In this document: positions 12,042 through 59,188 of the stretch, piece by piece
Position numbering within the stretch: the stretch's first letter is position 1
Layout: every line of letters starts with the position of its first letter
From: an uncultured bacterium
GTDB lineage: Bacteria > Hydrothermota > UBA3073 > NMUJ01 > CBEVQO01
Direction of reading: 5' to 3'
Length of the DNA: 64,000 nucleotides
Assembly (NCBI GenBank): GCA_965552055.1
Contig: CBEVQO010000005.1
Location: 13,373 to 77,372, forward strand
Made by a program: the position numbers and the translations under genes
The notes under the pieces: model-generated
Seen by the model: the letters and a program-made list of their open reading frames with translations, nothing else
Told to the model about the DNA's origin: nothing
Databases searched by the model: none

Positions 12042-12043
12042 AA

Positions 12044-19261: not shown

Positions 19262-20818
<1,557 letters not shown>

Positions 20819-20851
20819 TTTCTCTCCGGGCAGCACACTTTATTTTTTTAT

Positions 20852-20923
<72 letters not shown>

Positions 20924-20924
20924 T

Positions 20925-20996
20925 GGGGATGTAGCTCAGTGGGAGAGCGCCTGCTTTGCAAGCAGGAGGTCAGGGGTTCGAATCCCCTCATCTCCA
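20925..20996 (+). tRNA. tRNA-Ala (anticodon TGC)
   Basis: Acceptor GGGGAUG/CAUCUCC with G3:U70, anticodon loop UUUGCAA, T-loop GGTTCGAAT. Separated from tRNA-Ile by 1 nt. CCA not encoded. Confidence 0.9.
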
Positions 20997-21040
20997 TGGG
21001 AAGCGATTTAGTTCTTTGACAATCAAGGCAGATGAGCATC

Positions 21041-24047
<3,007 letters not shown>

Positions 24048-24087
24048 GATGCTCATCTGCCTACTTTGTAATTAACCTGTTTTTAAC

Positions 24088-38086: not shown

Positions 38087-40768
38087 ATGATGGTGATTTT
38101 AATTTTCATACTGGGAACATTAATTGACTCTGCAGGTGGCAAATGTATAATTTCGCCGAAAGAGGATTTTGTAATTAAGGTGACACCCTTTTTATGGATA
38201 AAAATAGAAGATTTACCCGAAATTGTAAAGGAAGCCATAGATTCTGCTCCTTCCTGGCTTCGAGGTCGCTTAACTTTGAATTTTATGAAAATGTACGGTC
38301 AATGTCAAGAAGTTTATGCTGGACTTATTCTTTCTGTTGATAAAAGTTATCGTGATGAAATTGCTTTTCAGATAGCAACGCTTGACCCCCTTATCCTTTA
38401 TCATTATGTAGGTGACCCTTCGCTCTTTGTAGAAAATGTGAAGTTGATTTATAAAAGCGATAGTTTACTCGATTATGTTGAGCTTGTGGAGTATCCAGAA
38501 TATACAACCTGCAGATATAGAATATCTGACCATGGGAAAGATACTTTTGAGATTGAGATTCCGAAAGAGATTTATTACTGGGATATTGTTCATCCTGTAA
38601 TTGGCTGGGAGGCTCCTCTTTATATTGACCCGAAGGTACCTGACCCTTATCATACAGGTGCAGGGGAAGCGCCTCCGCCCCGTGGACATTTCTGGCGCGA
38701 ATATTATCTCTTTTATCCTGATACCGTTGAAAGTACAGTGATATCGGATAATGGTAAAGATACAGTTAAAGAAGGATATGTTTGCACTCCTTTAAAAGAC
38801 CTGTTAAAGGATGAAAAAATATTATGGGCGATGAAGAAAGATACAATAGAAGGTAACGGTGCAATAGGTAAACTTACTCAATGGGTTAAAGATGTTATGG
38901 TTTTTAACTCTGGTAGTGAGCGTCCCTGGCAGCCTGTTCGTGTTTATCACATGCATATGGGGAGGTGTGGTGAGCATGGGCATATTACTGGAGCAGCTGC
39001 AAGAGCAGCTCTTATACCTGCAACTTATATTTTGACACTTTGCAATGACCATGTATGGAATGAATTTTATGACGAAGAATGGCATACATGGGAGCCTGTA
39101 AACACTTATATAAATCATCCTGAAAGCTATGATAACTGGTGGAGCGGAAAGGCAGTGTTACCCTTTGCTTTCAGAGGCGACGGATGCATTATCGATGTTA
39201 CACAAAGATACACCCCGCATTGTACTCTTACCGTGTTTGTTGCAGATAGCGTGGGTAATCCGGTTGATGGTGCATGTGTAAAACTTTATGCAACACATAT
39301 TTATGGTGGGACTTATATATGCGGATGGCATTACACAAATACAGATGGATTGGCAAGATTTATAATCGGTGATAATGTAAGTTATTACATAAAAATAGAA
39401 TCAGACATTGGTAACTATCCTTCAAGTGGAAGTATGCAGATAATAACGATTTCGCAACCAGATACTCATTATTATTATGAGCATTATTTTGATGAATTTT
39501 TACCGCAATTAAATGCAGAAAGTACCCAAATAACAGAACCTGTAGAATATCGAGTTGAGATAACATTTAAACTTGAGGATGAATATACAGAAGCACAAAC
39601 TTTGTTTTCGAATGAACTGGGAGTTGCGCAAAAGTGGTTTAAAAAAGGGTTGCCAAAAATAAACTTTTTCATTTGTGATGAGGAGAATTATAAAAAATAT
39701 CTTGAAGGTGAAAATTTTGATGCTGTTTACATTGCAAAAAATGTAGATTCGGGATATGTGTCTTTTCAATTTCCAGTGCCTCATCTTACAAATTGGTACA
39801 TTGTTTTTATGAATAAAAATAAATGCAAGACTTATGAACTTCTTGAATTTGAAGTGAAGAGCTATCAATTAACTTCAGTAGCACATATTAAAGTTGAGAA
39901 AGCAGTTTATGATTTTGGGACAGTTATAGCAGGTAAATTTTCACAGGATACAATGTGGATTTATAACATTGGACTTGGTGACTTAAAAGTTGATAGTATA
40001 AAATTAATTTCAAATGTTTTTGATTTTGATGATAATTTGCCTTATATGCTTTCCTCGCATGATAGTGTGGGTGTTTTATTATATTTTGCTCCAGAAGATA
40101 CAGGTATTTTTTGTGATACTTTGTTTATTTATTCAGATGACATTGATGCCCAAGAGTTACCGGTAGTTTTGGTTGGTGAGAGTAGAGTGCCCGATATTGA
40201 GTTTGCAGATAGTGTGTGTGATTTTGGTACGGTATCCATAGGCCAAACTGTTTATAAAAGAGAAAAAGTGTGGAATTGCGGGAGTTATCCTTTAAAAATT
40301 GACAGTGTTATCTCGACGAGCAATTCATTTGGTGTTTACTCTCCTTCTTTTCCACAACAGTTAGAAGAGGGTGATACTCTCGAGATGATAATTTATTGTT
40401 CGCCACGGGATACGGGAATTCTTGAAGGCGAGTTTTTGTTCTATTCAAATGATCCCGATGAAAATCCAGCTGTGTTAAAATTAACGGCAAGGGGATATGG
40501 TCTTCAGGAAAAGTTAGGCAGTTTTTATGTGAAATACAATCCAAATCCCTGTAAGGATTTCTGTGTTATTACTTATTATTTGCCAAGAGAAGAAAAAGTT
40601 AGTTTAAAGATATATGATGTATGTGGCAGATGTGTTGAAAAAATTAATTCTTTTGAGAAAACAGGCATTCACAAAATTTTTATTAAAGATTTGCCATCGG
40701 GAGTGTATTTCTGCGAGTTTAAAGCAATGAAAAAATTGCATAGATTTAAGATAATCTTTATAAGATGA
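38087..40768 (+). CDS. Secreted transglutaminase-like domain protein with Ig-like domains and T9SS C-terminal sorting domain
   Basis: Transglutaminase-like core GRCGEHGHITGAAARAALIPATYILTLCNDHVWNEFYDEEWHTWEP (Cys/His). DUF1573-like Ig modules (YDFGTV...NIGLGDLKVDSI). C-terminal tail KIYDVCGRCV...GVYFCEF...FKIIFIR typical of T9SS sorting domains. Confidence 0.6.
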   Translation: MMVILIFILGTLIDSAGGKCIISPKEDFVIKVTPFLWIKIEDLPEIVKEAIDSAPSWLRGRLTLNFMKMYGQCQEVYAGLILSVDKSYRDEIAFQIATLDPLILYHYVGDPSLFVENVKLIYKSDSLLDYVELVEYPEYTTCRYRISDHGKDTFEIEIPKEIYYWDIVHPVIGWEAPLYIDPKVPDPYHTGAGEAPPPRGHFWREYYLFYPDTVESTVISDNGKDTVKEGYVCTPLKDLLKDEKILWAMKKDTIEGNGAIGKLTQWVKDVMVFNSGSERPWQPVRVYHMHMGRCGEHGHITGAAARAALIPATYILTLCNDHVWNEFYDEEWHTWEPVNTYINHPESYDNWWSGKAVLPFAFRGDGCIIDVTQRYTPHCTLTVFVADSVGNPVDGACVKLYATHIYGGTYICGWHYTNTDGLARFIIGDNVSYYIKIESDIGNYPSSGSMQIITISQPDTHYYYEHYFDEFLPQLNAESTQITEPVEYRVEITFKLEDEYTEAQTLFSNELGVAQKWFKKGLPKINFFICDEENYKKYLEGENFDAVYIAKNVDSGYVSFQFPVPHLTNWYIVFMNKNKCKTYELLEFEVKSYQLTSVAHIKVEKAVYDFGTVIAGKFSQDTMWIYNIGLGDLKVDSIKLISNVFDFDDNLPYMLSSHDSVGVLLYFAPEDTGIFCDTLFIYSDDIDAQELPVVLVGESRVPDIEFADSVCDFGTVSIGQTVYKREKVWNCGSYPLKIDSVISTSNSFGVYSPSFPQQLEEGDTLEMIIYCSPRDTGILEGEFLFYSNDPDENPAVLKLTARGYGLQEKLGSFYVKYNPNPCKDFCVITYYLPREEKVSLKIYDVCGRCVEKINSFEKTGIHKIFIKDLPSGVYFCEFKAMKKLHRFKIIFIR

Positions 40769-40798: not shown

Positions 40799-43141
40799 AT
40801 GAAGAAGTGTGTTTTAATACTATGTGTATTTTGGGGTCTATTAATGGCTAATGCCGATGCTGAGAAATGGGTTGTGGATACTTCTGGTGTAGAGGGCGAA
40901 TCTTTACAGGTGGCGATAGATAAAGCATGGAATGACCCTGGAATTGATACTGTAGTGGTTAAAAACGGGAAATATCATCTTGCTATAAATGGCGATACGG
41001 GTTTAATAATGCGAGATTCTGTTGTATTGATAAGCGAAGGTGGTGCGTACAAATGCACACTTACAGCAATAAAAGAAGATTTCAGTGACACTGCATGGCA
41101 TGTGATTTTTTGTGATACAAGTGGCTTCAAAGATACTGCATCTCATGCAGCACTGATAAAAGGTTTTACAATAAAAGATGGCAAGACAGAGTTCGGTTCT
41201 CCACCGCACAACCAAGGTGGAGGCATTTTCTTATACAGGGCTTCTCCTGTTATTGAATCATGCAATATTGTTTACAATACCGCCTACAATGGAGCAGGCA
41301 TTTACATTGAATATGCTTCACCTATATTGAGGGATAACATAATAGCGCATAATTATGCTTACTATTTTTGCGGAGGCGTTCATATTGCTGACCATTCCTC
41401 ACCTTATTTAAGCGGTAACATTATAAAAGATAACTCGGGATATTATGCAGGTGGTATTTGCATTATAGGTTATTCAAGACCTGAATTGTGCAATAATATT
41501 ATAGAAAAGAATTGGGCGGGTGCTCTTGGTGCGGGCATTTATATCCTTGCTTCTTCTTCAGCAACTCTAAATAATAACATTATTAAAAACAATCATGCCG
41601 ATTATAAAGGAGGCGGTATTTGCATTTTGCAAAATTCTTCCGCGATATTAAGGGCTAGCATTATAAAGGGCAATAGTGTTTATCACCATGGTGGTGCTTT
41701 ATGCATAGGTAAAAATTCTTGGTGTGTGCTTTCGAATAATGTTATTATCGATAATAAAGCTCGTGATTATGGTGGATGTGTTTTTATTTGTGATAATGCT
41801 TCTCTTTTGATGAAAAATTGTGTTATTGCGATGAACAAAGCACTGGAAGGCGGGGTAATATTTGAAAGTTGTTCAAGCAAAACTGTAATTGATTCGTGTT
41901 TTATAATTGATAATGGCAGTCATTCTTCGCGCACGGGTCTTGCATTCATTGATAGCACTGCGGATTCAGGTGTGACATTTAAAATTTCAAATTCAAATGT
42001 TTATTATAATACCTATCAGCCCGATACCGAGATTTATAACTTATCGAGTGTTATGATAGATTTAAAGAACAATTTCTGGTGGGATACAACCGATAGTGAA
42101 ATATCATCATTGATTTACGGCTTAAATGACCATTCTAACTGGCGAAAAGATTTTGTGTCTGGTGTGCCAGGTGAGCCTCTTCAAGTTGATTCTGTAAAAG
42201 TGTATATTGATTCGATGTATTCTGAATTAGCCGATAACATATGGGAACCATGCACCCTTTATTTGAGATTATTCGGCAGAGATAGATTAAGGAATGTGAA
42301 AGAAATAGCCATTGCCATCGTTAAGACATCCATTTACCAGGTAGGGATTGCTGTTAGTTTGTTAGAAACGGATACTTCATCTGGAATATACGAGGGTGAA
42401 ATTTATGTGAAGGAAGTTACAGGAAAGGATACCATTCAAACTGATGATATTTATCAAAGAATAAAGGTTGATTCAATATGGGATACGATAATTGTTTTTC
42501 CTAACATTGATGTTACAAAGAGATACCGTGTAATTTACAAAGGTCCTGATATTGATGTATCTTATAAGAATTATGATTTTGGAAGTATAAATGTTGGAGA
42601 TAGTGCTGATTTTGAATTTTACTGCATGAATAAAGGTATTGCGAATCTTATAATTGATAGTGCAAAAGTAGATTCACCTTTCTTTGTAGTTTCTCCTGTA
42701 TTACCTTGCAGTATCGGGAGTGGTGATAGTGTAAAAATGGTTGTAAGATTTATCCCGCGTGATACGGGCAACTATACGGATACACTTAAAATTTATTCCA
42801 ATGACCCGAATGAACAGGTGATTTATATTTTGCTATCAGGTAGCGCTGTTTCGCCTTTTGTAAAAGAAATAAAACCTGTTAGATTCGAATTTAAAGGCGT
42901 GACCCCCAATCCTTTATGCAATCACGGTAAAATTCATTATGCTGTTCCTGAGAAATCGCACATTAATATAAGAATATATGATGTCACCGGTAGATTCATC
43001 AAAGAAATTATCAATGAAGAAAGTTCACCTGGCTTTTATGATGTTGAATTCAAAATTAATTTACCGGAAGGCGTTTACTTCATCGTAATGGAAGCTGACA
43101 AATTCAAATCGATTCGCAAATTTCTGGTAATAAAATGGTGA
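40799..43141 (+). CDS. Secreted right-handed parallel beta-helix repeat protein with T9SS C-terminal sorting domain
   Basis: Signal peptide; more than 8 repeats of ~23 aa of the form NNII.(D/N)N...GGGI.I.; Ig-like module (YDFGSINVGDSADFEF); tail RIYDVTGRFIKEI...GVYFIVMEADKFKSIRKFLVIKW. Confidence 0.6.
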   Translation: MKKCVLILCVFWGLLMANADAEKWVVDTSGVEGESLQVAIDKAWNDPGIDTVVVKNGKYHLAINGDTGLIMRDSVVLISEGGAYKCTLTAIKEDFSDTAWHVIFCDTSGFKDTASHAALIKGFTIKDGKTEFGSPPHNQGGGIFLYRASPVIESCNIVYNTAYNGAGIYIEYASPILRDNIIAHNYAYYFCGGVHIADHSSPYLSGNIIKDNSGYYAGGICIIGYSRPELCNNIIEKNWAGALGAGIYILASSSATLNNNIIKNNHADYKGGGICILQNSSAILRASIIKGNSVYHHGGALCIGKNSWCVLSNNVIIDNKARDYGGCVFICDNASLLMKNCVIAMNKALEGGVIFESCSSKTVIDSCFIIDNGSHSSRTGLAFIDSTADSGVTFKISNSNVYYNTYQPDTEIYNLSSVMIDLKNNFWWDTTDSEISSLIYGLNDHSNWRKDFVSGVPGEPLQVDSVKVYIDSMYSELADNIWEPCTLYLRLFGRDRLRNVKEIAIAIVKTSIYQVGIAVSLLETDTSSGIYEGEIYVKEVTGKDTIQTDDIYQRIKVDSIWDTIIVFPNIDVTKRYRVIYKGPDIDVSYKNYDFGSINVGDSADFEFYCMNKGIANLIIDSAKVDSPFFVVSPVLPCSIGSGDSVKMVVRFIPRDTGNYTDTLKIYSNDPNEQVIYILLSGSAVSPFVKEIKPVRFEFKGVTPNPLCNHGKIHYAVPEKSHINIRIYDVTGRFIKEIINEESSPGFYDVEFKINLPEGVYFIVMEADKFKSIRKFLVIKW

Positions 43142-43172
43142 TAAAAATTGATAAAAATTTTTAATTTTTAGC

Positions 43173-43199
43173 TTGACAAAGTCAAAATTTGATTAAAAT
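43173..43199 (+). promoter_or_regulatory. sigma70-like promoter (TTGACA-N15-TAAAAT) for the giant surface-protein gene
   Basis: agcTTGACAaagtcaaaatttgatTAAAAT, then SD AGGAGG at 43206-43211 and ATG at 43217. Confidence 0.5.
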
Positions 43200-43216
43200 A
43201 GATAAAGGAGGTTGTT

Positions 43217-46200
43217 ATGAGGTGGTTAATTTTTATGTTTTTAACTGCAAATCTGTGGGGGGCTGAATACTGGTGGAGGATTGAGGTCGTTGATTCTGGG
43301 GTTCAGCGTGGTCAATATACAAGTGTTGTTCTTGATGATAGTGGTAGACCCTGGATTTCTTATTATGATGCCAATAATGGGTGGTTGATGTGTGCGCACT
43401 GGACAGGGACTGCATGGGATATTGATACGGTTGATGATAGTGGCAATGTTGGTATGTATTCGAATATTGCTCTTGATAAAGCAGGTTATCCTCATATCGT
43501 TTACTTTGATGATGGGAATACAAGGTTAAAGCATGCGTGGTGGACTGGTGCTTTTTGGAAAACAGAGACCGTGAATGACCCTAACTCAAATGATTATGGA
43601 TACTGGTGCGATATTGCTATAGATTCTTTAAATCGCATCTGGGTATCGTACTATGATGCTGATAACAAAAGGCTTATGTGTGCACGCAAAGTAGGAGCTG
43701 TGTGGGATACTATTTATATCGTAGTTGAAGCATTTGGACCTCCGGTCGGGGAATACTCATCAATTTGTATTGATACATCTAATAATCCCCATATATCCTA
43801 TTATCATCAGATTAATGGGTTATCTCATGCATGGTGGGATGGTTCAAAATGGCAGGCTCAGCAGGTTGATTTTGCAGGCGGTTATTACACAAGCATAATT
43901 GCAAGCGAATGTGATACACTGCATATATCTTATTACAATCCTTCTTCGCGGGATTTAAAATATGCGAAAGGTTATTATTCTTCGGGTAGCTGGGGATGGA
44001 CGACGCAGGTAGTTGATACACAGGGAGATGTTGGCAAATGGACGAGCATAGCTGTCTGTGGAAATTCACCTCATATATCCTATTATGATGCTACAAATTT
44101 ATGTCTCAAATATGCACATTTTGAGAATGGTAGCTGGGAGATAGAAGTTGTTGATTCGCCGAAAGTCGGTGAATACACATCAATTGCACTTGATACAAAT
44201 GGCTTACCCTGTATATCCTATTATGACGGAGGTAGTGAATGGCTTAAATTTGCAAGATTGCTTATAAGACCAGAGGTTGATTCAACTTCACCTCTTCATA
44301 ATGAAGTTAATGTATCGCGTGCAACTCAGATAAATGTCTGGTTCTCAAAGGATATTGAATCTGCAACAATAAATAGTGCGAGTTTTAAAGTAATTGGTTC
44401 ACAATCGGGTGAAAGGAAGGGCACGATAACTTACGATTCTAATGAACGCAAAGCAACTTTTACATTGAATGCAGGTGAAACTTTCTATACCGGTGAGAAG
44501 GTGACAGTAATTTTAACAGATTCTATTAAGTCAGTGGATGGTGCACCACTTGTGCCTTATGTGTTTGAATTTACGATAAAGGCAGCCGAAGGGATTGCAG
44601 AGTTTAGTAATGAGGTAAGGTATAGTGTATTGGGTACGCCTGTTGATATAGAGGTTTGTGACCTTGACCTTGATGGTGACCCAGACATTGTTACGCTTTC
44701 ACAGGATACGATAATGATATGGCGTAATGATGTTGATAGTCTGGTACCTGTGGATACTATTCCCTCGCCTTCTTCACAGTACTGCATTGCGATATTAGAC
44801 CTTGATTTGGATGGTTTACCTGATATTGTGGTTGATTCAACTCCATCGAGTGCTCCTTATAGTATAAAGTTTTACAAAAATCAAGGTGGATTGAATTTCG
44901 CCTGGGGTTTTCGTTGTCAAACTGCTTATGGTGTAACAGATATGTTTGTGTCTGACTTTGATGGAGATGGCGACTTTGATATTGCTGCACTGGAATTAAC
45001 TCAGGTTGAGATTCTTTTAAATGAAGGATTTTTTAATTTTACATCGAGTGATACGATTGACCTTACATTTTCGCACAATAAATTATATGGTGCTGATTAT
45101 AATAATGATGGGTTGATTGACCTTGCTGTTACTGCCGCAGCGGGCACTCCCGGTTATGATGTTCTTGCAAATGAAGGTGAAGGCAAATTTAAGCACATTG
45201 GAACAATAACTTTAAGTCAGGGTGTTAAGGATATTATTGCATCTGATTTCGACAATGATTACAATGCGGATAATGCTTTGACGGGCGATGATACACTTAT
45301 TATTTCAGAAGGCAATGGTGATTTTAGTTTTGCACCGGAAGATGATTATGTTGCTACTGGTTCAAATTTTCTTACTTCCGGTGATTTTGATGCAGATGGT
45401 GATATAGACCTTGCGGTTAGTGGGAATGTTACAGGTGGTGATACTTTATTTATATTTTTGAATGATAATGCTAGTTTTGATTCTGTTCACAAATTTTCTG
45501 CAACTGCGATAGAAAGAATTGTGAGTGCAGATTTTAACCTTGATAGCACAATTGATATTGCATCTATTCATTCTGGTGGAATATTATCAATATTTTACAA
45601 TACGCCCGATACATTTCCACCTCCGCCTCCTGAAAGTTTAACTGCAAATGGTGGTTCTCCCTCTCCATGGGATTCCAGTGCTCGATTTGTAATTGACTGG
45701 ATAAATCCTAATGACCCATCGGGGATACTTTTTGCCAATTATAAGATAGGTTCGAGACCTGTGAGTGACTGGGATACAACAGGTCATATGTCTGCACCGT
45801 ATACTCATCCCAAAGATACGATTTACTGGAAAGGGGAAGGGATAGATACATTGTGGGTGTGGCTTGTTGATGGTAACCTTAACACCTCGAAAGATTCTGT
45901 TTCATTTGTGCTTTTAAGAAGGGATACAACACCTCCTCCTGAGCCACAAAAGATTTCTCCATCTGATGGAATATGGGTTGATAGTGCAAGGATAAAATTT
46001 ATGTGGCATTCTGTTGTTGATTCTCTATCAGGGACAATGAGTTATGGGATAGTGCTTGAATATGATGATGTAATAGGTCCTCCTTATATTAGAACAGCGG
46101 GCGATTTGAGTGGCACAACTTACTTTTATACATGTCCTGAGACTGCTGTTTACTGGAGAGTATTTGCAAAGGATTCGGCAACAAACAGGAGTCCGCAATC

Positions 46201-49200
46201 ATTCTGGTGTGTAAAAATAGACACAACTCCTCCAAATAAATTTTATGTTATTTCTCCCGATGGTGTATGGTTGAGGAAACCTCCTTATACATTTATCTGG
46301 CATAGTGCAAAAGACCACTGGTCAGGTGTTGAAAGTTATAAATTGAGAGTGTGGAGAGAAGGTTTTGCTGCTAGCAATTGGTCCGGTATAACTGATACCT
46401 CTTACATTGTGTTTGGTTTGCCTGGTTTTGCCGAAACTACATACTGGTGGTGTGTTATAGCGTATGATTCTGCTGGAAATTATGTGTATAGTGATACAGG
46501 GATTTTCTGGACAGATACTACAATTTTGCCGCCTTCTAATCTCACGATAAATGGTAAAAATCCGAACGACTGGACCAATGATAGTGTATTTACATTGAAC
46601 TGGACAAATCCTTCTGATTATTCCGGTATCGTTAGAGCATTATATAAGATTGGCAATAGACCTTCTTCTGATTATGATACAACTGGTTCTCTCACAGGAA
46701 TTCCTCCTGTAAGTATTATCTGGCGGGATGAAGGTGTAGAAACATTATGGCTGTGGCTCGAAGATAAGGCAGGTAATGTTGATTACACAAAAAATGCATT
46801 TGCAATAATAAGAAGGGATATAACTCCGCCTCAATCTTTTACTCAGATTTCACCTGTAAATAATTTCTGGCTAAATACCATTAATCCTCGCCTTATATGG
46901 CACAGCACTATGGATACTTTGTCGGGCTTGGCTTATTATACGATAAATGTTGATACAGTTCAAACATTTTCAACGAAAATAATTTGTGATACTGTTTCGG
47001 ATACCATTTACAATGCAAATCTATTTGAAGACGCGTTTTACTGGTATGTTGAGGCATGGGATTCTGCTGGTAATGTATGTTCTACTTTTGTGTGGAATTT
47101 CAAAATAGATACAACCCATCCTCCCAAACCTGTTTTAATATCTCCTCCTGATGGCTCATGGAACGGCAAATATGCTCATTTTGTATGGCATAAAGTTGAA
47201 GATTACTGGTCTGGTCTAGCTGCTTATCGCTTAAACATTGATACGAATGCTTTGATGCCAAATCCTCTGACATTTTCACTTACAGATACAGAGACAACAA
47301 TTGTGCTTACTCATGAAGGCAAAACTTATTACTGGATGGTGGAAGCTGAAGATTCGGCATTTAATATATCGCAAAGTTTGGTATGGACTTTCAAACTTGA
47401 CACAACAGTTCTTGCACCGATTAATTTAATTGCAAATGATAGTTCTCCGTCACCGTGGCAAAGGAGTTCTATGTTTGTTATTAACTGGCAAAATCCATCT
47501 GATTCCGCTGGAATAAAGTTTGCATTATACAAACTTGGCACAGGACCCAGTAATAACTGGGATACCACAGGTACGATGCATTTACCACCCGATACGATTT
47601 ACTGGCAGGGCGAGGGCAAAGAAACTTTATGGGTATGGCTTTGCGATAGTGCAGGCAATGTTAATTACCATAATCGCTCTTTTGTGTTGTTAAGAAGAGA
47701 TACAACTCCTCCTTTTGCATTTTCAAAAATAAGACCCCAGGATAATGCGTGGATAAGGGTTGTTAAGCCTTCTCTTATCTGGCATAGCACTCAAGATTCT
47801 CTATCGGGTCTGAGGATTTATCGTGTTGCTGTAGATAAAGATATGACTCCTCCTTTTATGATTGATTTTGTTTTGCGAGGTACTCTATATGTTACACCCC
47901 ATTTACCTGAGACGATACTTTACTGGGCAGTCGTAGCAGTTGATTCTGCAGGTAACTTTAAAGAAGCTGATGCGGATACAAAAGTATGGTGGAAGATGAA
48001 AATAGATACAACTCCTCCTGATACAGTCCATCCAGTTTATCCTGTATCTAATCAATGGACGAGAGGTGGATTTATGTGGCGTAGTGCTAAAGATTACTGG
48101 TCAGGGATTAGATTTTATCATTTTGTGATAGATACAGTTTATCCATTCACTCCCAGTCCCATAAAGGATACAGTTTGCAGGGATACCGTGATATTTATCA
48201 AAGGACTTTCTGAGCGGAATTATTACTGGAAAGTTGTAGCATTAGATTCTGCTTTTAATGGAGGTGCTGGTGTTGTTCATCAATGTCGAGTTGATACCAC
48301 GCCACCGGATAGCGTTAAATTAATCTCTCCTGAGAACCTTTCTTACACGAATGATATACATTCTGTATTTACATGGGATACAGGCTATGATGCGCGTTCA
48401 GGTGTTATGGGCTATATTTTCTGGGATTCTTCACTTGCATATGGTGAAAAAATTGATACTCTTATCTTAGGCGTATTTAACACATCTTATAAGCCTTTAA
48501 AAGGTTTAAAGGAGGGCTGGCATTGCTGGGCAGTTGTAGCAATGGATTCAGCCTACAATGTTAGTGATGGTCATTATCCTTATTCTGTGCATTTGTTATG
48601 TGTGGATACTACTCCTCCTGAGTCCGCAATTGCAACTTCGCCTCTTTATGTTGATAGCCTTGTATTTGTTGTGCAATGGAGTAAAGGTAAAGATACTTTA
48701 TCGGGCATCACAGATACTTATAAATTGAGATATTCTACAGATTTAGTTTCATGGTATGATACGGCTGTTACGGGTACCGCATTTATTTTCAAAGGAGAAG
48801 ACCAGACAAAATATTACTTTGAGGTGCTTTCTCGGGATTATGCTGGCAATTTTGAGCGCATCACAGGAGTGCCTGAATGCTCAACCTATGTTGATACTAC
48901 ACCGCCTCAGCAGGTTCAGTTAATCTCACCTGAAGGCTGGATTAAAGAATTATCACCTGTTTTAATATGGCACAAAGCAAATGACTTTACAGGGATAGCA
49001 GAATATTATGTGCAGCTAAGTAAAGATATGGGTTTCGATACCATTATTTTTTCGGATACCGTTGCAGATACATTTGCGGTGGTAGGTTTAAATTTAATGG
49101 AAAATGTTAAGTACTACTGGCGAGTTAGGGCAAAAGACAACGCAGGCAATGTAAACATGTGGTCAGGTTATAATATGTTTAAAGTGGATACATCATCGCC

Positions 49201-51430
49201 GCAAATACCTGAACTTGTAAGTCCTCTAAATGATACTCCAGTAACAACGGTTGATGATACTTTGACACTTATATGGAGGGCATCTTACGATGAGCTTTCT
49301 GGTATTTATGCTTATCAGGTGCAGATAAGCGAAGTTCCTGATTTCTCATCGCTTATACTTGATACTATTTTGTATCATCCTGATACTATATTGAGGTATC
49401 CAAGAGAATTAAATGAAATTAAGCATTATTGGCGAGTATTTGCGATAGATAGTGTCTGGAATGTTAGCGATGGACATAAAGGGACATTTATGGTTGACAA
49501 TACCGCGCCTGTACTTGTTCATAAGTATCCTGACCTGAATGACACGGTTGACCCGCGTATAAAAATAGAAATTGCATTTTCTGAAAAAGTAGACCCCAAA
49601 ACGGTTGATACTCTCTCCTTCTGTTTATATATGGAAGCAGAAAAAGTGAGAGGAAATGTTTATCAACATCCAGCTATAGAGACATTGTTTTACTTTGAGC
49701 CTAAAGAAAATCTTGAACCCAACACCAAATATCTTGTTGTTGTTTCAACAAAAGATAAAAAAGTTAAAGATATTGCAGGTAATAAGATGTCGATGGTGAG
49801 CTGGAGTTTTTACACTGCAGGCAGTGCTGATAATATGCCTCCGGATGTTAAGGAAATAAAAACTTATCCCGAAGTTACTTATGGTGCGCCTTATGTAGTT
49901 ATAAAAGCATTGCTAAAGGATGATATTTCGCGCATTAAATATGCTGAATATTTCGTTGATTCAGTGGGTTCACCTGGTACGGGCGATGCAATGATGCCAC
50001 TCGATGGTGCGTTTGATAGCAAAGAAGAGTGGGTGATAGATACTCTATTCACTAAAGATTATAGTGGCACTTTGAGGATATTTATTCAGGGTAAGGATGA
50101 ATGGGACAACTGGAGTGATGCAGTTAAATCGAAGATAATAGTATGTCCTCCCGATACAATACCTCCGCTTTTTGATATAATGGTTAATGGAAGCCGAGAA
50201 GATACACTTCAGGTGACAGATACTATTGTAGTGAGAACTAAATCTTCGGAAATTATAAATCCCGATTATCCCGTAGTATGCACTTTGAAATACAATTCCA
50301 CAGTTATTGCACAAACTATGAAGAGAGAAGATAGTGTTACCTATACTGTGCAATTTGTAATTACACATCCTCCTTTGACAGAATATGATGTTAAAGTGCT
50401 TGGTTACGATTATGGATGGCATTGGGATACTTTGAAGGATAGCATTGTAAGTATGCCAAATCTCGGTGTCAACGAAAAGCATTTTATACTTTATGACTTT
50501 GAATCACCCAGTATAATCTCATTTACATTAAAACCAGAGACCCTTGAAATAACGGATAAACTAAATGTGGAGATTACAATAAAAGATAATTATGAGCTTA
50601 AAGAAGTTAGATTTTATTTTGACTCCGACACCGTACCTGTGGAAACGATTTCATTGAGTGGCAGGGATACTTCTTTAACAACGAACATACCTGTTAGTGG
50701 TTTGACTCCTGCCTCTTCCCATATATTGCGTGCCCTTGCATCTGATATATGTGATAATATTAGCCCTGAAGTTTCTGCTGGCTTTTATATCAGAGAACTC
50801 GATGTCATACCACCTGTTTTGATGCTTCAGAGACCGGATACATTTTATCTTGGAGATTCCGTTTTAATAGTAGCAATCGCGAGCGAGAAATTGTCAAGAG
50901 ATTCAATTCCGGTTTGTTTGATAAAAGGCTTAAGAGGTAATGATACTTTGATAGATACTTTAAAGATGACTTTTGTGGATGATTCTACCTGTCAGACGAA
51001 ATACAGGGTTCAGGGTTTAAATCTGGGAGTTGCTTACATTGATGTATATGCTTATGATGAAGCAGGCAACCTTGGACTCGTTGAAGATTCGGTTTACATC
51101 AGTAAGAGAGGAAGATTATTTGACCCAAGGAGAGATGTGTTCCCGTTTCCTAATCCTGTTAGAAAATCCAACGAGGTGTATTTCCATATTTATGTGAATC
51201 AAAATGCCTATGTTGATATAAGAATTTATACGATAGAAGGTCGTCTTGTTAAGAGATTAGAAAGAATATTTGTAGAAGGAGGTCGTCCGAAATACAGCTG
51301 GGAGGCAAATGTAATTAAGGTTGACATTTCTAAATTAAAAACAGGATTATATTATGCCAAGATTACGATAAGGAGTCTGGATGGGAAAGAAAAACAGAGT
51401 TGCACCAAGAGATTTGTGGTGATAAAGTAA
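43217..51430 (+). CDS. Giant (2737 aa) modular secreted surface protein: N-terminal propeller-like repeats, FG-GAP/VCBS-like repeats, at least ten Ig/FN3-like modules, T9SS C-terminal sorting domain
   Basis: Signal peptide; about seven ~45-aa repeats (G.YTSIALD..G.PHISYYD....LKYA); DxDxDG repeats (DLDLDGDPDIV, DFDGDGDFDIA, DFDADGDIDLA); ~100-aa modules separated by (K/R)(I/V)DTTPP linkers, each with YW.V.A.D.AGN; tail FPFPNPV...IRIYTIEGRLV...KRFVVIK. Confidence 0.75.
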   Translation: MRWLIFMFLTANLWGAEYWWRIEVVDSGVQRGQYTSVVLDDSGRPWISYYDANNGWLMCAHWTGTAWDIDTVDDSGNVGMYSNIALDKAGYPHIVYFDDGNTRLKHAWWTGAFWKTETVNDPNSNDYGYWCDIAIDSLNRIWVSYYDADNKRLMCARKVGAVWDTIYIVVEAFGPPVGEYSSICIDTSNNPHISYYHQINGLSHAWWDGSKWQAQQVDFAGGYYTSIIASECDTLHISYYNPSSRDLKYAKGYYSSGSWGWTTQVVDTQGDVGKWTSIAVCGNSPHISYYDATNLCLKYAHFENGSWEIEVVDSPKVGEYTSIALDTNGLPCISYYDGGSEWLKFARLLIRPEVDSTSPLHNEVNVSRATQINVWFSKDIESATINSASFKVIGSQSGERKGTITYDSNERKATFTLNAGETFYTGEKVTVILTDSIKSVDGAPLVPYVFEFTIKAAEGIAEFSNEVRYSVLGTPVDIEVCDLDLDGDPDIVTLSQDTIMIWRNDVDSLVPVDTIPSPSSQYCIAILDLDLDGLPDIVVDSTPSSAPYSIKFYKNQGGLNFAWGFRCQTAYGVTDMFVSDFDGDGDFDIAALELTQVEILLNEGFFNFTSSDTIDLTFSHNKLYGADYNNDGLIDLAVTAAAGTPGYDVLANEGEGKFKHIGTITLSQGVKDIIASDFDNDYNADNALTGDDTLIISEGNGDFSFAPEDDYVATGSNFLTSGDFDADGDIDLAVSGNVTGGDTLFIFLNDNASFDSVHKFSATAIERIVSADFNLDSTIDIASIHSGGILSIFYNTPDTFPPPPPESLTANGGSPSPWDSSARFVIDWINPNDPSGILFANYKIGSRPVSDWDTTGHMSAPYTHPKDTIYWKGEGIDTLWVWLVDGNLNTSKDSVSFVLLRRDTTPPPEPQKISPSDGIWVDSARIKFMWHSVVDSLSGTMSYGIVLEYDDVIGPPYIRTAGDLSGTTYFYTCPETAVYWRVFAKDSATNRSPQSFWCVKIDTTPPNKFYVISPDGVWLRKPPYTFIWHSAKDHWSGVESYKLRVWREGFAASNWSGITDTSYIVFGLPGFAETTYWWCVIAYDSAGNYVYSDTGIFWTDTTILPPSNLTINGKNPNDWTNDSVFTLNWTNPSDYSGIVRALYKIGNRPSSDYDTTGSLTGIPPVSIIWRDEGVETLWLWLEDKAGNVDYTKNAFAIIRRDITPPQSFTQISPVNNFWLNTINPRLIWHSTMDTLSGLAYYTINVDTVQTFSTKIICDTVSDTIYNANLFEDAFYWYVEAWDSAGNVCSTFVWNFKIDTTHPPKPVLISPPDGSWNGKYAHFVWHKVEDYWSGLAAYRLNIDTNALMPNPLTFSLTDTETTIVLTHEGKTYYWMVEAEDSAFNISQSLVWTFKLDTTVLAPINLIANDSSPSPWQRSSMFVINWQNPSDSAGIKFALYKLGTGPSNNWDTTGTMHLPPDTIYWQGEGKETLWVWLCDSAGNVNYHNRSFVLLRRDTTPPFAFSKIRPQDNAWIRVVKPSLIWHSTQDSLSGLRIYRVAVDKDMTPPFMIDFVLRGTLYVTPHLPETILYWAVVAVDSAGNFKEADADTKVWWKMKIDTTPPDTVHPVYPVSNQWTRGGFMWRSAKDYWSGIRFYHFVIDTVYPFTPSPIKDTVCRDTVIFIKGLSERNYYWKVVALDSAFNGGAGVVHQCRVDTTPPDSVKLISPENLSYTNDIHSVFTWDTGYDARSGVMGYIFWDSSLAYGEKIDTLILGVFNTSYKPLKGLKEGWHCWAVVAMDSAYNVSDGHYPYSVHLLCVDTTPPESAIATSPLYVDSLVFVVQWSKGKDTLSGITDTYKLRYSTDLVSWYDTAVTGTAFIFKGEDQTKYYFEVLSRDYAGNFERITGVPECSTYVDTTPPQQVQLISPEGWIKELSPVLIWHKANDFTGIAEYYVQLSKDMGFDTIIFSDTVADTFAVVGLNLMENVKYYWRVRAKDNAGNVNMWSGYNMFKVDTSSPQIPELVSPLNDTPVTTVDDTLTLIWRASYDELSGIYAYQVQISEVPDFSSLILDTILYHPDTILRYPRELNEIKHYWRVFAIDSVWNVSDGHKGTFMVDNTAPVLVHKYPDLNDTVDPRIKIEIAFSEKVDPKTVDTLSFCLYMEAEKVRGNVYQHPAIETLFYFEPKENLEPNTKYLVVVSTKDKKVKDIAGNKMSMVSWSFYTAGSADNMPPDVKEIKTYPEVTYGAPYVVIKALLKDDISRIKYAEYFVDSVGSPGTGDAMMPLDGAFDSKEEWVIDTLFTKDYSGTLRIFIQGKDEWDNWSDAVKSKIIVCPPDTIPPLFDIMVNGSREDTLQVTDTIVVRTKSSEIINPDYPVVCTLKYNSTVIAQTMKREDSVTYTVQFVITHPPLTEYDVKVLGYDYGWHWDTLKDSIVSMPNLGVNEKHFILYDFESPSIISFTLKPETLEITDKLNVEITIKDNYELKEVRFYFDSDTVPVETISLSGRDTSLTTNIPVSGLTPASSHILRALASDICDNISPEVSAGFYIRELDVIPPVLMLQRPDTFYLGDSVLIVAIASEKLSRDSIPVCLIKGLRGNDTLIDTLKMTFVDDSTCQTKYRVQGLNLGVAYIDVYAYDEAGNLGLVEDSVYISKRGRLFDPRRDVFPFPNPVRKSNEVYFHIYVNQNAYVDIRIYTIEGRLVKRLERIFVEGGRPKYSWEANVIKVDISKLKTGLYYAKITIRSLDGKEKQSCTKRFVVIK

Positions 51431-52428
51431 TGTTGAAGCAATTAGAGTACTGGATAAGAAAGGTGATAAGAGAAACAAAAGACCTTGAATTTGACACTCA
51501 CCTGATCGGTGTAAGGACTAAAAAAGAGGATTATCCGAAAGCCATTTTTAATAGGACTTTAAGTGAAGCTGTAAAAAGGAAATATGGTTCAAGGTTTGAC
51601 CCCAAGAATCCCGATGTTCAGATAATATGCGATATTGATAAAGATGAGATAGAATTTTACATAAAGCCTGTCTTCCTTTATGGTAGATACAGAAAACTTG
51701 TGCGTGGTATTCCTCAAACTCGCTGGGATTGTAAGGAATGCGGAGGAAAAGGATGTGAAAAATGTAATTACACAGGCAAAATGTATCCTGAATCTGTAGA
51801 GGAGATAATAGGTGATAAGGTTAAAGAATATTTTAAAGCAGAAGAAATAATTTTGCATGGTTGTGGCAGAGAAGATGTAGATGCGAGGATGCTTGGAAAT
51901 GGCAGACCATTTGTGCTCGAAATAAGAAAACCATGGAAAAGAAGAGTTGATTTGAACAAACTTACAGAAGAAATAAATGATAGTGCAAAAGGGAAAATTG
52001 AAGTTTTATTTTTGCGTTATACTGAGAGGCATGCCGTTAGATTGATAAAAGCGGTTCGTCCAAAGAAAGTTTATCTTGTAAATGTGAAGTTCGAGGAGCG
52101 GGTTGACAAAAGTAAGCTTCTGATGGCACTGGATGAATTAAAAGGTAAGGAGATAGTGCAAAGGACACCGATAAGGGTTCTGCATCGCAGAGCCAATTTA
52201 AAAAGGATAAGAAAAGTTTATGATTGTAAATTGATAGAGTTTAACGATTCTACTGCAAAGATAGAGTTTACATGTGAAAGCGGTATGTATGTTAAAGAGA
52301 TGATTTCAGGTGACTTTGGCAGGACGAAGCCCAGTTTAAGCGAAATACTCGGCGTGCAATGTGAGGTGCAGGAGCTCGATGTAATAGGTGTTGAGAAGAT
52401 TCCGTTAGAAGAATTTGGGTTCCTCTAA
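51430..52428 (+). CDS. tRNA pseudouridine synthase Pus10-like (archaeal/eukaryotic type)
   Basis: Zinc ribbon CKECGGKGCEKCNYTG and block HGCGREDVDARMLGNGRPF resembling the Pus10 catalytic-Asp region. ORF track starts at 51400; the ATG at 51430 (MLKQLEYW) overlaps the giant gene stop as TAATG. Confidence 0.55.
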   Translation: MLKQLEYWIRKVIRETKDLEFDTHLIGVRTKKEDYPKAIFNRTLSEAVKRKYGSRFDPKNPDVQIICDIDKDEIEFYIKPVFLYGRYRKLVRGIPQTRWDCKECGGKGCEKCNYTGKMYPESVEEIIGDKVKEYFKAEEIILHGCGREDVDARMLGNGRPFVLEIRKPWKRRVDLNKLTEEINDSAKGKIEVLFLRYTERHAVRLIKAVRPKKVYLVNVKFEERVDKSKLLMALDELKGKEIVQRTPIRVLHRRANLKRIRKVYDCKLIEFNDSTAKIEFTCESGMYVKEMISGDFGRTKPSLSEILGVQCEVQELDVIGVEKIPLEEFGFL

Positions 52429-55914: not shown

Positions 55915-56889
55915 TTGTCAAGTAGAAATTTCTTTATTGCCATTTTAATATTCCGAATAAATTTAATGGTGAAAAGATTTTTATTCATGATAATTATTTT
56001 GCTAACCTGTTCGCCACCCAGGGACAACCCCTTTGACCCCAATTCTCCCATTTTTAAATTTGGTTTCTTAAAGGGAAGTGTTAAAAATCATTATCATATT
56101 CCTGTTCCTTATCCCGAAATCTATATTTTAGGTTCACAGAAAGGTTGTGGAGATTCTACGGGTAACTTCTTTTTTAAACTCGAAGAGGATTCCTATAAAG
56201 TCATTTTTTCAAAAAGCGGATATACATCGTCAACTTTATCTGTATGGATTGCATCTAAAGATACTCTTGAGGTCTTTCCCGTTATTGCAGGGATACCTTA
56301 TTTTGAAGAAGTCGGTGTTGCTTCTGAATTTTACAAAGGTACAGCGATTCAACCTGATAGATGTTATCTCACTATAAGAGCGGAAGTCAAAGACCCCGAT
56401 GGATTACAGGATATAGATAGTGTGAAGTGCCTTATACCTGCTGATAATCCATATTATGTAACTCTTTTTCCTTCTGCAGGATACTATGAGGCTACAATAA
56501 AGGGCACGAGTATTGTGACGATAGAAAACTGGGTTGGCAGGACTTTTCGCGCTTATGCAGTAGATAAATGGGGGATTAGGGGTTTTTCTCGTGATTTTAC
56601 ACTTGTAAGAGTTATAAAGGAGACAGCGAATCCTTTATATCCCCAAAATGGTGATTCGGTGGAATCTCCCGTGACCTTTGTGTGGAGAAAGCCGGATGTG
56701 AATTTTAGCATTCATTATCAGCTGATATTATACGAAGAAAACGGTGCAGAGAGAATTTTCGATACAGAAGATACCACAATTACGCTTTCACTTAATCCTT
56801 CACGCTATAGCTATTACATAAGAGCAATAGACGAATTCGGTAATTTCTCACAATCCACTTACACTGTCTTTTATGTTATCTCAAAATGA
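55915..56889 (+). CDS. Hypothetical lipoprotein with Ig-like beta-sandwich regions
   Basis: Probable start at internal Met MVKRFLFMIIILLTCSPP (lipobox LLTC); beta-rich sequence. Confidence 0.45.
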   Translation: MSSRNFFIAILIFRINLMVKRFLFMIIILLTCSPPRDNPFDPNSPIFKFGFLKGSVKNHYHIPVPYPEIYILGSQKGCGDSTGNFFFKLEEDSYKVIFSKSGYTSSTLSVWIASKDTLEVFPVIAGIPYFEEVGVASEFYKGTAIQPDRCYLTIRAEVKDPDGLQDIDSVKCLIPADNPYYVTLFPSAGYYEATIKGTSIVTIENWVGRTFRAYAVDKWGIRGFSRDFTLVRVIKETANPLYPQNGDSVESPVTFVWRKPDVNFSIHYQLILYEENGAERIFDTEDTTITLSLNPSRYSYYIRAIDEFGNFSQSTYTVFYVISK

Positions 56890-58438
56890 TGAGCTTTTCT
56901 ACTCTATTATCCTGAGTTCTTACAAAGTAAATTCCCTCTTTAAGATTTGAAATACGAATAATCCCTGACTCATTTTTCAAAGAGCATATTTTTCTGCCTG
57001 TTATGTCGAATATTTCAATATTGCCTTTATAATTTATTTTTATGTAATCTTTTGCGGGATTTGGTATTAATTTTAATTTTGAAATCTTATTTTTATTTTC
57101 ATAGGTTGCTACTACTCCTTCGTTTATAACAACAGGTATCGATTCGTCGAAAGTTGCTGCGAAAACAGTATCACTGATAAAATCAGGTGTATTCCCGTAA
57201 ATTTTGTATAAGCCCGGAGTTAAACCGGTGAGATAAAAATTACCATAGGGGTCAGAGAGCGTAGTTTTCACACTTTTAGAGTTTCTGGCGATTATAATGC
57301 CTATCTTCTGTATCTTACAATAAGAAAGTTTTCCGTAAAGTGTAAAATACCCTGTTTTGCTTCTATTAAGTTTAAAGTTAATGTTCGAAGCCGATGATGA
57401 GAATTTAATCGCTTCCTGAAAATTAAAAGTGGATGGATAAAGTACACCTGTATGATTTTTTGCGAAGCAATAAAGATAAACTTCACCATGTAATCCGCTT
57501 AATCTGTAAAATCCATCACGATTTGTGATCGCACAATAGAACTTTGAGTTTTCATCAAATGCAAATACAAAAGCAGGATAAATTGGTGCACTGTCTTCTA
57601 CATAGCCTTCGATTGAAAAGCCTGTATTAACACTATCAAAAGTAAGTATAAGTGATGTATCGTTTTTGAGAAAAATGCTATCTATCGATGGTAGATAACC
57701 ATTTGCTACCGCTAATATCTTGTAGTTACCCTCAGGTAATAATAGAGTGTCCGTTATATCAACTTTTTTAATGGTGCAATATGTTTTTGATGCTATAAAA
57801 ACATAAGCTGAGCAATTTGTTGTTAGAGTTAAATTCAATAAGTTTGAAGGTTGCCTATATATTTCGATGTAGTAGTTTTCATCGGGTGCGAGATGTAAGT
57901 TTTCTATTTTGTTGATTATAAGGCCTTTGTAAAATGCTTCGAGTGTATAATGTGAGATTTTGCTTGTGTCCGGTGGTATATTATCGATGATGAACTCACC
58001 ATTTTCATCCGTTGATGCTGTTCCTACCGTATAAAGGTCGTTAAATTTTAATATTAAAGTTGCATCTTTTAAAGGTGTGGAATCCGTGTCCATTACTTTT
58101 CCGCTTATAGTAGCCGGATGCCAGTCGGGATTAGGCGATAGATTAAAATTTACATCTGTTATTTCACCTGTGATGATTATTTCAACGGCATCCTCAGGGA
58201 AATCCGCATTATACCACCACTGGGGGAAATATCCTCCTTTTTCTGCGTAAACATAAACGGTTTCCCCTGCTCTTAGACCGCTGAATTTATATCTCCCATC
58301 AGGAAAAGTATATGTCCATTTGTAAGGATATAAAGGTGCATCGAAAGCATTTTTTAATAGCAGTACGATAGAAAAATTCAAAGGTTCTCCATTACTTTCT
58401 ACTCTGCCAGTAAGTAATATTCCGATTAAAAAAATCAT
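56876..58438 (-). CDS. Secreted protein with carboxypeptidase-regulatory-like domains and T9SS C-terminal sorting domain
   Basis: Signal peptide; repeated CarboxypepD_reg-like modules (ISGKVMDTDSTPLKDATLIL...TDENGEFIID; GYVEDSAPIYPAFVFAFDENS...TNRDGFYRLSGL); tail LIPNPAKDYIKINYKGNIEIFDITGRKI...GIYFVRTQDNRVEKLIILR. Confidence 0.55.
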   Translation of the reverse strand: MIFLIGILLTGRVESNGEPLNFSIVLLLKNAFDAPLYPYKWTYTFPDGRYKFSGLRAGETVYVYAEKGGYFPQWWYNADFPEDAVEIIITGEITDVNFNLSPNPDWHPATISGKVMDTDSTPLKDATLILKFNDLYTVGTASTDENGEFIIDNIPPDTSKISHYTLEAFYKGLIINKIENLHLAPDENYYIEIYRQPSNLLNLTLTTNCSAYVFIASKTYCTIKKVDITDTLLLPEGNYKILAVANGYLPSIDSIFLKNDTSLILTFDSVNTGFSIEGYVEDSAPIYPAFVFAFDENSKFYCAITNRDGFYRLSGLHGEVYLYCFAKNHTGVLYPSTFNFQEAIKFSSSASNINFKLNRSKTGYFTLYGKLSYCKIQKIGIIIARNSKSVKTTLSDPYGNFYLTGLTPGLYKIYGNTPDFISDTVFAATFDESIPVVINEGVVATYENKNKISKLKLIPNPAKDYIKINYKGNIEIFDITGRKICSLKNESGIIRISNLKEGIYFVRTQDNRVEKLIILR

Positions 58439-58552: not shown

Positions 58553-59188
58553 TTACTTTAACAAAAAAATAAGATTTATAATGGGAAAGCAAAATGCAAG
58601 TGTAAAAGAGATATTACGCACATTATACCATAATTTGTATTTTTTATAAAATCTTTCAATTTCGCTTTCTTCCTTTGCACTTAAATATTTAAGATGAGCT
58701 TCTTCGTATTCTTTTTGCGAAAAATAAGAAAATCCAATCAAAAATAATTGTGTTCCCAGCAAAATAAATCCCTTTTTTCTTTTCCCGTTTTGTATGTCGT
58801 AAACACCCGGAATTATATGAATTGGTTTCAATACTTTTTTTCTCACAAAAACGGTTTCGATTTTTATTTTTTCGATAACAGGAATTTTAAATTCTTCTTT
58901 TGCTTTTTTAAACACTTTTATTACTTTTGGGGGAGTTACTGTGGGGTCGAGTTCGAGTTCAGGATTCAGAATAAGAGCCTCTCCGAACTCCAGCATTGCA
59001 AGATTTTCTTTGGATAAAGCAATATAAGAATATGCGAGGATTAAATGTAAATCTATTTTTTCACTTTTTTTCAACTTTTCTTCTTTCAAAATTTTTTTGG
59101 CAAGTTCTATTGTTGTTAAAAAATCGCCTTCTTCAAAATGTTTTTTTACTTCACTTAAATCGACCAAAATCAAAAAAATGAAAATCAT
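58553..59188 (-). CDS. Hypothetical membrane-anchored protein (TPR-like helical N-region, two C-terminal TM helices)
   Basis: 211-aa ORF, 4-nt overlap with the upstream Ser/Thr kinase gene; hydrophobic segments LLGTQLFLIGFSYF and FTLAFCFPIINLIFLL. Confidence 0.4.
   Translation of the reverse strand: MIFIFLILVDLSEVKKHFEEGDFLTTIELAKKILKEEKLKKSEKIDLHLILAYSYIALSKENLAMLEFGEALILNPELELDPTVTPPKVIKVFKKAKEEFKIPVIEKIKIETVFVRKKVLKPIHIIPGVYDIQNGKRKKGFILLGTQLFLIGFSYFSQKEYEEAHLKYLSAKEESEIERFYKKYKLWYNVRNISFTLAFCFPIINLIFLLK

Follow-up and report, generated by a model that had tools for sequence, protein, structure and literature searches.

The 64,000-nucleotide stretch of DNA analysed here, called the window below (contig CBEVQO010000005.1 of an uncultured bacterium), carries an 8.2-kb open reading frame (ORF) for a giant protein of 2737 amino acids (aa), which is moderately likely to be a non-enzymatic surface fibril exported by a type IX secretion system (T9SS), anchored through its C-terminus and holding ligand-binding propellers at the distal end of a long stalk. 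Tail homology and architecture both place the protein in a known class, that of cargo with a T9SS type-A C-terminal domain (CTD) and of fibrillar surface proteins with many domains; the FG-GAP, Big_5 and FN3 parts likewise come from known families. An earlier note on this DNA had placed the ORF at 43217-51430, where it is present exactly as claimed, and had proposed an adhesin-like surface protein, which stays the best functional reading now that the domain reading is upheld by profile searches and structure prediction. The domain order given there (propeller, FG-GAP block, FN3 or immunoglobulin (Ig)-like modules, T9SS tail) also holds, except that two Big_5 domains had been overlooked, one separating the propellers and the other at residues 2094-2200. 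For genome annotation, the outcome is that an unnamed 8.2-kb ORF is now fully parsed as a T9SS-type surface protein (Table 1).

The giant gene is real and intact. Its translation is free of internal stops and its reading frame uninterrupted, the product being an acidic protein of 308 kDa (isoelectric point 4.7), and its guanine plus cytosine (GC) content of 0.36-0.39 is the same as that of the flanks. A repeat-rich gene on a metagenome-derived contig could be an assembly artefact, collapsed or chimeric, as the earlier note had feared. This explanation is very improbable, because the available versions agree in size and because the internal DNA repeats are short and divergent. The public collection holds an identical copy (P0001) on a 180-kb contig, and three further members of the cluster, found on other contigs (53, 40 and 16 kb; NCBI, ENA and JGI), are each 2737 aa long and differ from the window protein by 21-24 substitutions and 0 indels, giving four 2737-aa versions without indels. 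No direct DNA repeat within the gene exceeds 60 nt in length or 84% identity, and the modules of the protein are pairwise 17-56% identical; the uniform GC content and the uninterrupted frame likewise argue against an artefact. The case is built on the agreement of assemblies and on the repeat analysis rather than on long reads, and on this footing the repeat-rich 8.2-kb gene can be trusted as assembled.

Export through a T9SS is suggested by the end of the protein, already called a T9SS tail in the earlier note. A scan restricted to the last 113 aa matches Por_Secre_tail (PF18962) with 31.0 bits (E = 3.1e-7) for a cut-off of 27, the score being 25.6 in a full-length scan, and this part of the protein also aligns with the C-terminal end of PorU as modelled in NCBIfam (8.5e-12). 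Scores of the tail are marginal because of an insertion of ~15 aa (EGGRPKYSWEANV), which is common to relatives of the WOR-3 type. In an alignment of 11 tails (giant protein, seven relatives and three other window proteins), all 11 match Por_Secre_tail, and P21, N22, P23, G51, G65 and Y88 are invariant. The profile derived from these tails matches the PorU C-terminus 6za2 (E = 6e-6) and the 75-residue CTD chains 8glk_D (1e-5) and 8glj_D (5e-4), with weaker matches (E = 0.05) to two other C-termini, those of the PG93 antigen (5m11) and of a beta-agarase (8h97). These profile comparisons show homology of the tail with the C-terminus of PorU and with the CTDs of T9SS substrates, in line with the initial assignment. 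The characteristics of T9SS type-A cargo, namely the extreme C-terminal position, the PNP motif, the hydrophobic-G-x-Y motif and the terminal K/R-rich strand, are all present. In addition, three other tails encoded in the window exceed both the Pfam and the NCBIfam cut-offs for Por_Secre_tail, and since three other window proteins carry such tails the organism appears to use this sorting signal repeatedly.

The stalk would be formed mainly by an array of FN3 modules, of which the earlier note had counted at least ten, TTPP-linked and ~100 aa long; the modules are confirmed and their number is 13. They follow the order (A-B-B)x3 + Bx4, with three A modules (residues 800-902, 1100-1200 and 1395-1494) that are mutually 44-56% identical and ten B modules at 26-45% identity, an order suggesting that a unit of three modules was triplicated long ago. 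Searched as a profile, the 13 modules match FN3 domains of two chitinases, A1 of Bacillus circulans (1k85, E = 2.5e-6) and another one (6bt9, E = 1.6e-5), and further matches, at E = 0.015-1, are found with ~15 classical FN3 domains (titin, fibronectin, contactin). Pfam fn3 is reached by one module only of the 13 (E = 0.12), and a single-sequence search of the PDB with the array gave chance-level matches only. On the strength of the profile matches, the 13 modules are classified as FN3 domains of the bacterial 'D..GV..Y / DaAGN' type.

Two propellers precede this array. Propeller 1 is, in a high-confidence model, a seven-bladed beta-propeller. Segments within residues 20-347 match one another in a windowed self-comparison (BLASTP E = 1e-5 to 1e-17), which delineates seven units, and the AlphaFold2 (AF2) model, computed from an alignment of 23 homologous segments, has a mean predicted local distance difference test score (pLDDT) of 92.1, a predicted template modelling score of 0.90 and 28 strands, i.e. 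seven blades of four strands each, the last blade being completed by the N-terminal strand 19-26. Both results agree with the earlier description of about seven ~45-aa repeats compatible with a beta-propeller; a single-sequence PDB search with this domain gave chance-level matches only. Upstream of it, residues 2-11 form a low-confidence helix outside the propeller fold in the AF2 model, and homologues have a like N-terminal arrangement with an AxA-like site (...CSAGA|YYW). Propeller 2 is, by its motifs and family match, an integrin-alpha-like seven-blade propeller: FG-GAP_3 (PF13517) is matched over six stretches with 67.9 bits (E = 1.2e-18) for a Pfam cut-off of 26.9, seven DxDxDG-type motifs stand at residues 482, 528, 580, 627, 677, 723 and 772 (spacing 45-52 aa), and the repeats match one another in windowed BLASTP. 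The DxDxDG block had been read in the same way, as FG-GAP/VCBS-like. The two Big_5 (PF13205) copies together reach 94.5 bits for a Pfam cut-off of 23.6, with a weak CopC-like Pfam match at residues 354-418 in the first.

Between the second Big_5 domain and the tail, residues 2204-2630 have an all-beta, beta-sandwich-like secondary structure in an AF2 model based on a 7-sequence alignment, with pLDDT values of 56-78 for residues 2219-2310 and 56-91 for residues 2432-2630. Foldseek matches of this model are tandem Ig, FN3 and macroglobulin (MG) arrays, an adhesin extender region (6xi3) and PorU, and residues 2297-2358 resemble residues 2513-2570 in windowed BLASTP.

Table 1. Features of the giant gene, its product and neighbouring genes of related type. 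Coordinates are those of the window.
Feature	Residues	Window position	Strand	Remarks
Giant-protein ORF	1-2737	43217..51430	+	ATG start, 2737 aa, 8214 bp; read from sequence
Upstream signals of giant gene		43173..43211	+	TTGACA 43173-43178, TAAAAT 43194-43199, Shine-Dalgarno AGGAGG 43206-43211
Signal-peptide-like N-terminus	1-16	43217..43264	+	MRWLIFMFLTANLWGA; basic residue, then hydrophobic core
Propeller 1	17-350	43265..44266	+	Seven blades of ~47 aa each; consensus G.YTSIALD..G.PHISYYD....LKYA...W..E.VD
Big_5 Ig-like domain no. 1	~354-460	44276..44596	+	Pfam Big_5; end approximate
Propeller 2, FG-GAP/VCBS-type	~470-798	44624..45610	+	Seven repeats; one calcium-loop-like DxDxDG motif per repeat
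Array of 13 FN3 modules	800-2093	45614..49495	+	Each ~100 aa, opening with D-T-T-x-P-P or a near variant and closing with YW.V.A.DsAGN
Big_5 Ig-like domain no. 2	2094-2200	49496..49816	+	Best Pfam stretch, covering all 105 positions of the profile
About four further all-beta modules	2204-2630	49826..51106	+	Bounded by (D)xxPP linkers; no family match
T9SS type-A C-terminal sorting domain	~2640-2737	51134..51427	+	Motifs FPNP, IRIYTIEGRLV, GLYYAKI, KRFVVIK-COOH
Transglutaminase core + Ig-like (choice-of-anchor-D/HYDIN-like) protein with T9SS type-A tail		38087-40768	+	Profile scans
Right-handed beta-helix + Ig-like (choice-of-anchor-D/HYDIN-like) protein with T9SS type-A tail		40799-43141	+	Profile scans
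CarboxypepD_reg/SdrD_B protein with T9SS type-A tail		56876-58438	-	Profile scans

From the ORF and its domain order, the propeller fold and the FN3 and CTD homologies, we infer a secretion route, an anchoring, an orientation and a binding function with its ligand. By analogy with characterised T9SS cargo, the protein would reach the periplasm via Sec, using its short N-terminal signal; the type-A sorting domain would then be recognised and a type IX-like secretion system would carry the protein through the outer membrane, after which the tail would be cut off and the newly exposed C-terminus linked to the cell surface. In such an arrangement the C-terminal Ig-like modules would be proximal to the cell, and the 13 FN3 modules and the Big_5 domains would make a stalk tens of nm long, the whole fibril being estimated at ~60-80 nm on the basis of ~19 beta-sandwich modules of 3.5-4 nm each. 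The two propellers would be the distal ligand-binding heads, the FG-GAP propeller first and the HISYYD/LKYA propeller (propeller 1) beyond it, and may attach the cell to a particle, to another cell or to a polymer, for which a glycan is the likeliest candidate. No catalytic domain was found in the protein at E ≤ 0.1 in Pfam and NCBIfam; the folds detected, Big_5, FG-GAP_3 and FN3, are binding or spacer folds only. Several results weigh against the fibril reading or against parts of it: the residue at position -3 of the putative signal peptide is a non-canonical W; propeller 1 of the window protein matched no Pfam or NCBIfam model, lectin and BNR families included; the AF2 model is unreliable over residues ~2310-2430 (pLDDT <40); the tail scores 18.8 bits with TIGR04183, under the cut-off of 23; and the ORFs scanned (≥120 aa, covering most of the window) include no recognisable gene of the T9SS machinery (porV, sprA/sov, porU, porK-N).

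A structural function in the envelope has also been considered, namely that the protein is an S-layer or sheath subunit tiling the cell surface and no discrete adhesin, as the earlier note had offered among its options. S-layer proteins of Tannerella are T9SS cargo, and a very large, acidic protein made only of beta-sandwich and propeller modules would suit such a role. The isolate of the WOR-3 lineage is described as thick-walled (PMC12285271), and the C-terminal model has a Foldseek match to an in-situ S-layer protein (7ptp). This match has a TM-score of 0.18, however, and reflects generic tandem Ig domains only. Neither an S-layer homology (SLH) domain nor any other S-layer anchoring or lattice domain was found in Pfam and NCBIfam, the linear array of more than 20 modules is more like fibrillar adhesins than lattice-forming proteins, and module number varies widely among relatives (1575-2443 aa), which is unexpected for a lattice subunit. 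Taken together, an S-layer or sheath subunit is quite unlikely, and the surface fibril is retained as the preferred interpretation. Two further classes, SLH-anchored S-layer proteins and giant adhesins of the RTX type secreted by a type I secretion system, were rejected, with no SLH domain and no RTX repeats at E ≤ 0.1 in Pfam and NCBIfam.

When 1.84 billion cluster representatives (50% identity clusters) were searched exhaustively in HMMER with the 23-sequence profile of propeller 1, 36,714 proteins were retrieved at E ≤ 1e-3, of which 26,718 also pass E ≤ 1e-10 and 14,189 pass E ≤ 1e-30, so that a domain without a model of its own in the Pfam-A and NCBIfam copies used spans tens of thousands of protein clusters. 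Among 119 non-self matches listed for the full protein, nearly all cover only residues ~20-350, and 117 align over the whole propeller 1 unit with 29-43% identity. Many relatives carry several tandem copies, often 2-5 propellers, in giant bacterial and archaeal proteins (P0008-P0239), where the partner domains are Kelch, PKD, FN3, subtilisin, M4 protease, kinase, SLH and others; they occur in Thermoplasmata, Methanomassiliicoccales, Elusimicrobiota, Planctomycetota, Bacillota and Chloroflexi, among other groups. In at least 117 other giant proteins, propeller 1 is joined to a wide variety of stalk and catalytic modules, which is the pattern that a portable binding head should produce. It nearly always sits in giant extracellular proteins, and its ligand would bear on how many uncultured lineages attach to substrates.

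As to affinities, the top Foldseek neighbours of propeller 1 are the PLL/PHL lectins of Photorhabdus, GH145 enzymes and fungal fucose lectins (AAL, AofleA), with TM-scores of 0.55-0.71; PLL, PHL, AAL and AofleA are multivalent sugar-binding lectins. Identities to structural neighbours are 11-17% (14-17% in structural alignments with PLL-type lectins), and the family profile reaches the Aleuria fucose lectin by sequence at E = 0.07. Pfam matches among the 23 relatives are BNR_4 (8/23, best 4.2e-13), DUF7253 (8/23), SBBP (6/23) and Fungal_lectin (1/23), the DUF7253 match being short and partial, as this model seems to cover merely a fragment of one propeller 1 repeat. A distant superfamily link with BNR_4 is likely from these comparisons, because eight of the 23 relatives match this family, and propeller 1 is probably a generic seven-bladed propeller, distantly related to the BNR_4/sialidase-like and lectin propellers. 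Two narrower assignments were examined. Membership of the PLL lectin family was rejected, for the seven-bladed fold is shared but not the sequence, no PLL or PHL chain being reached by the family profile at E ≤ 10; in the case of BNR_4/GH145 (PF15892), the window copy has no match at E ≤ 1 and is not counted as a member. The best PDB matches of the propeller 1 profile are AI-designed repeat proteins, and these were discarded as spurious periodicity.

With GH145 enzymes among the fold neighbours, the protein could instead be a secreted carbohydrate-active or other enzyme, in which propeller 1 is catalytic (GH145/BNR_4-like, lyase-like or CylK/Vgb-like) and the remainder serves as spacer and anchor. 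This is unlikely: by sequence, the window copy matches no family of enzymes, and it has only the low identity to structural neighbours given above, no catalytic residues could be mapped, and the strongly conserved residues repeat in every blade, as would be expected for structural or multivalent-binding repeats and not for a single active site. A bolder version of the fibril reading, which is possible although doubtful, would see in the HISYYD/LKYA propeller the head of a very large unmodelled family of bacterial and archaeal giant surface proteins, multivalent in glycan or polymer binding or even catalytic, here tipping a fibril of ~60-80 nm whose export would follow a type IX-like pathway present beyond the classical Bacteroidota and marked by a lineage-specific extended sorting tail.

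The genomic neighbourhood is rich in related genes. The two T9SS-tail genes upstream are co-oriented with the giant gene, with gaps of 30 nt and 75 nt, share contigs with it in three other assemblies, and probably form an operon with it. Co-transcription is possible because no terminator-like site was found by a scan of 42900-43217, nor at the other end of the giant gene. The canonical Shine-Dalgarno (SD) sequence announced by the earlier note is present, ending 5 nt before the ATG. The strong promoter of its own that the note had also claimed is not supported: the best -10 element upstream of the gene stands 15 nt from TTGACA, and a scan requiring 16-18 nt spacing reports no promoter there (its total count is 43, compared with 32.9 +/- 5.3 in shuffles, ~2 standard deviations above). 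The alleged contrast with leaderless neighbours is likewise unsupported, because several neighbouring genes have SD-like motifs, namely AAGGAGG at 38007 (-), AGGAGG at 55300 (-), GGAGG at 24665 and AGGGAG at 40799. Within window positions 43140-43185, upstream of the giant gene, a 13-nt palindrome (TTGACAAAGTCAA) includes the -35-like TTGACA and could be an operator, and a tandem GATAAAAATT x2 overlaps the stop codon of the upstream gene.

At its 3′ end, the giant gene is followed by an ORF for an archaeal-type tRNA pseudouridine(54/55) synthase, Pus10, at 51400-52428 (+) in this bacterial window; Pus10 is typical of Archaea and Eukarya. The ORF matches TIGR01213 with 404.8 bits (cut-off 200; model positions 58-402 only) and Pfam Pus10_C with 3.5e-70. 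As listed, it has a TTG start and a 31-nt overlap with the 3′ end of the giant gene, and because of this overlap translation probably begins further downstream. A Ser/Thr kinase carrying a PEGA domain and a GAF-sigma54 activator are encoded at 58553-60576 (-) and 60546-61997 (-), downstream of the fourth gene for a CTD protein (56876-58438); next to them, a small protein has weak TssQ-like lipoprotein similarity (25 bits, well under the cut-off). Elsewhere in the window are a type II restriction-modification pair at 11340-13312 (+), in which an MvaI/BcnI-family restriction endonuclease adjoins an N4/N6 DNA methylase, and a Lon-like protease of archaeal flavour at 13319-15751 (-), with LonB-type AAA, archaeal LonB lid and LonC helical domains.

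The host is WOR-3/Stahlbacteria-like according to its protein similarities. The Dxs protein of the window is closest to those of Candidatus Stahlbacteria (65% and 61%) and WOR-3 (59-61%), then of TA06, Edwardsbacteria and Cloacimonadota; in a scan of GTDB species-representative genomes its matches are at most 59% identical and spread over many phyla. A protein scan of the same genomes found no relatives of the giant protein. The rRNA operon (16S-tRNA-tRNA-23S, 19266-24049, +) has ~61% GC compared with ~36% for the genome, and high rRNA GC in a low-GC genome is a thermophile signature; no 5S rRNA follows the 23S at Rfam gathering thresholds. The closest relatives with the full architecture are named WOR-3 or Candidatus Hydrothermales (P0002-P0007, P0040, P0107), and near the homologues P0003 and P0007 neither a conserved operon nor T9SS genes were seen, the neighbourhoods not being conserved. 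WOR-3, Hydrothermota, Caldipriscota and Stahliibacteriota are names of one candidate lineage, the first isolate of which is the thick-walled organism mentioned above, a thermophilic diderm; secretion systems and S-layers are unmentioned in the paper that describes it (PMC12285271). The T9SS has been described as a system of the FCB superphylum (Fibrobacteres-Chlorobi-Bacteroidetes; PMC12421860, PMC9170169, PMC12398890), and no paper connecting WOR-3 with the T9SS was found in the literature library searched. The giant gene adds to the evidence that WOR-3/Stahlbacteria-like thermophiles put T9SS-type sorting tails on clustered surface proteins. In itself, the protein is a large but ordinary adhesin-like example that will not surprise specialists in bacterial surface proteins; its wider interest is confined to the size and poor annotation of the propeller 1 family and to the T9SS-type tails in a WOR-3-like thermophile.

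The FN3 domains of bacterial chitinases (1k85, 6bt9) match the modules over the whole domain, including the W of strand B, the D..GV..Y motif and Y.F.V.A.DaAGN in strands F-G, and 6bt9 also starts with DTEPP; unlike in the chitinases, the modules come here in 13 tandem copies of two subtypes, have no catalytic partner and fall singly below Pfam fn3. Propeller 1 shares its seven-bladed fold with the PLL/PHL lectins of Photorhabdus, BP39L of Burkholderia and CV39L of Chromobacterium, and with GH145/BNR_4. Propeller 2 resembles the integrin-alpha-type FG-GAP/VCBS propellers of bacterial surface proteins in its seven FG-GAP_3 repeats and DxDxDG motifs, and differs in being the second of two propellers, set between Big_5 and the FN3 array and known here from sequence alone. 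With the T9SS type-A CTD cargo of the FCB superphylum, large adhesins included, the giant protein has in common a CTD of ~100 aa, a putative N-terminal signal, a multi-domain passenger and adjoining cargo genes, whereas its host is WOR-3/Stahlbacteria-like and not of the Bacteroidota, and its tail is longer than the Pfam model and scores at or just below curated cut-offs. The nearest likeness is with the Ig-like proteins of WOR-3 and Hydrothermales, which are shorter (1575-2443 aa) and differ in module numbers, with the FG-GAP propeller found in P0002 only among those scanned, but which have in common with the giant protein, at 26-38% identity, the HISYYD/LKYA propeller, DTTPP-linked FN3 or Ig modules, Big_5 and the extended CTD.

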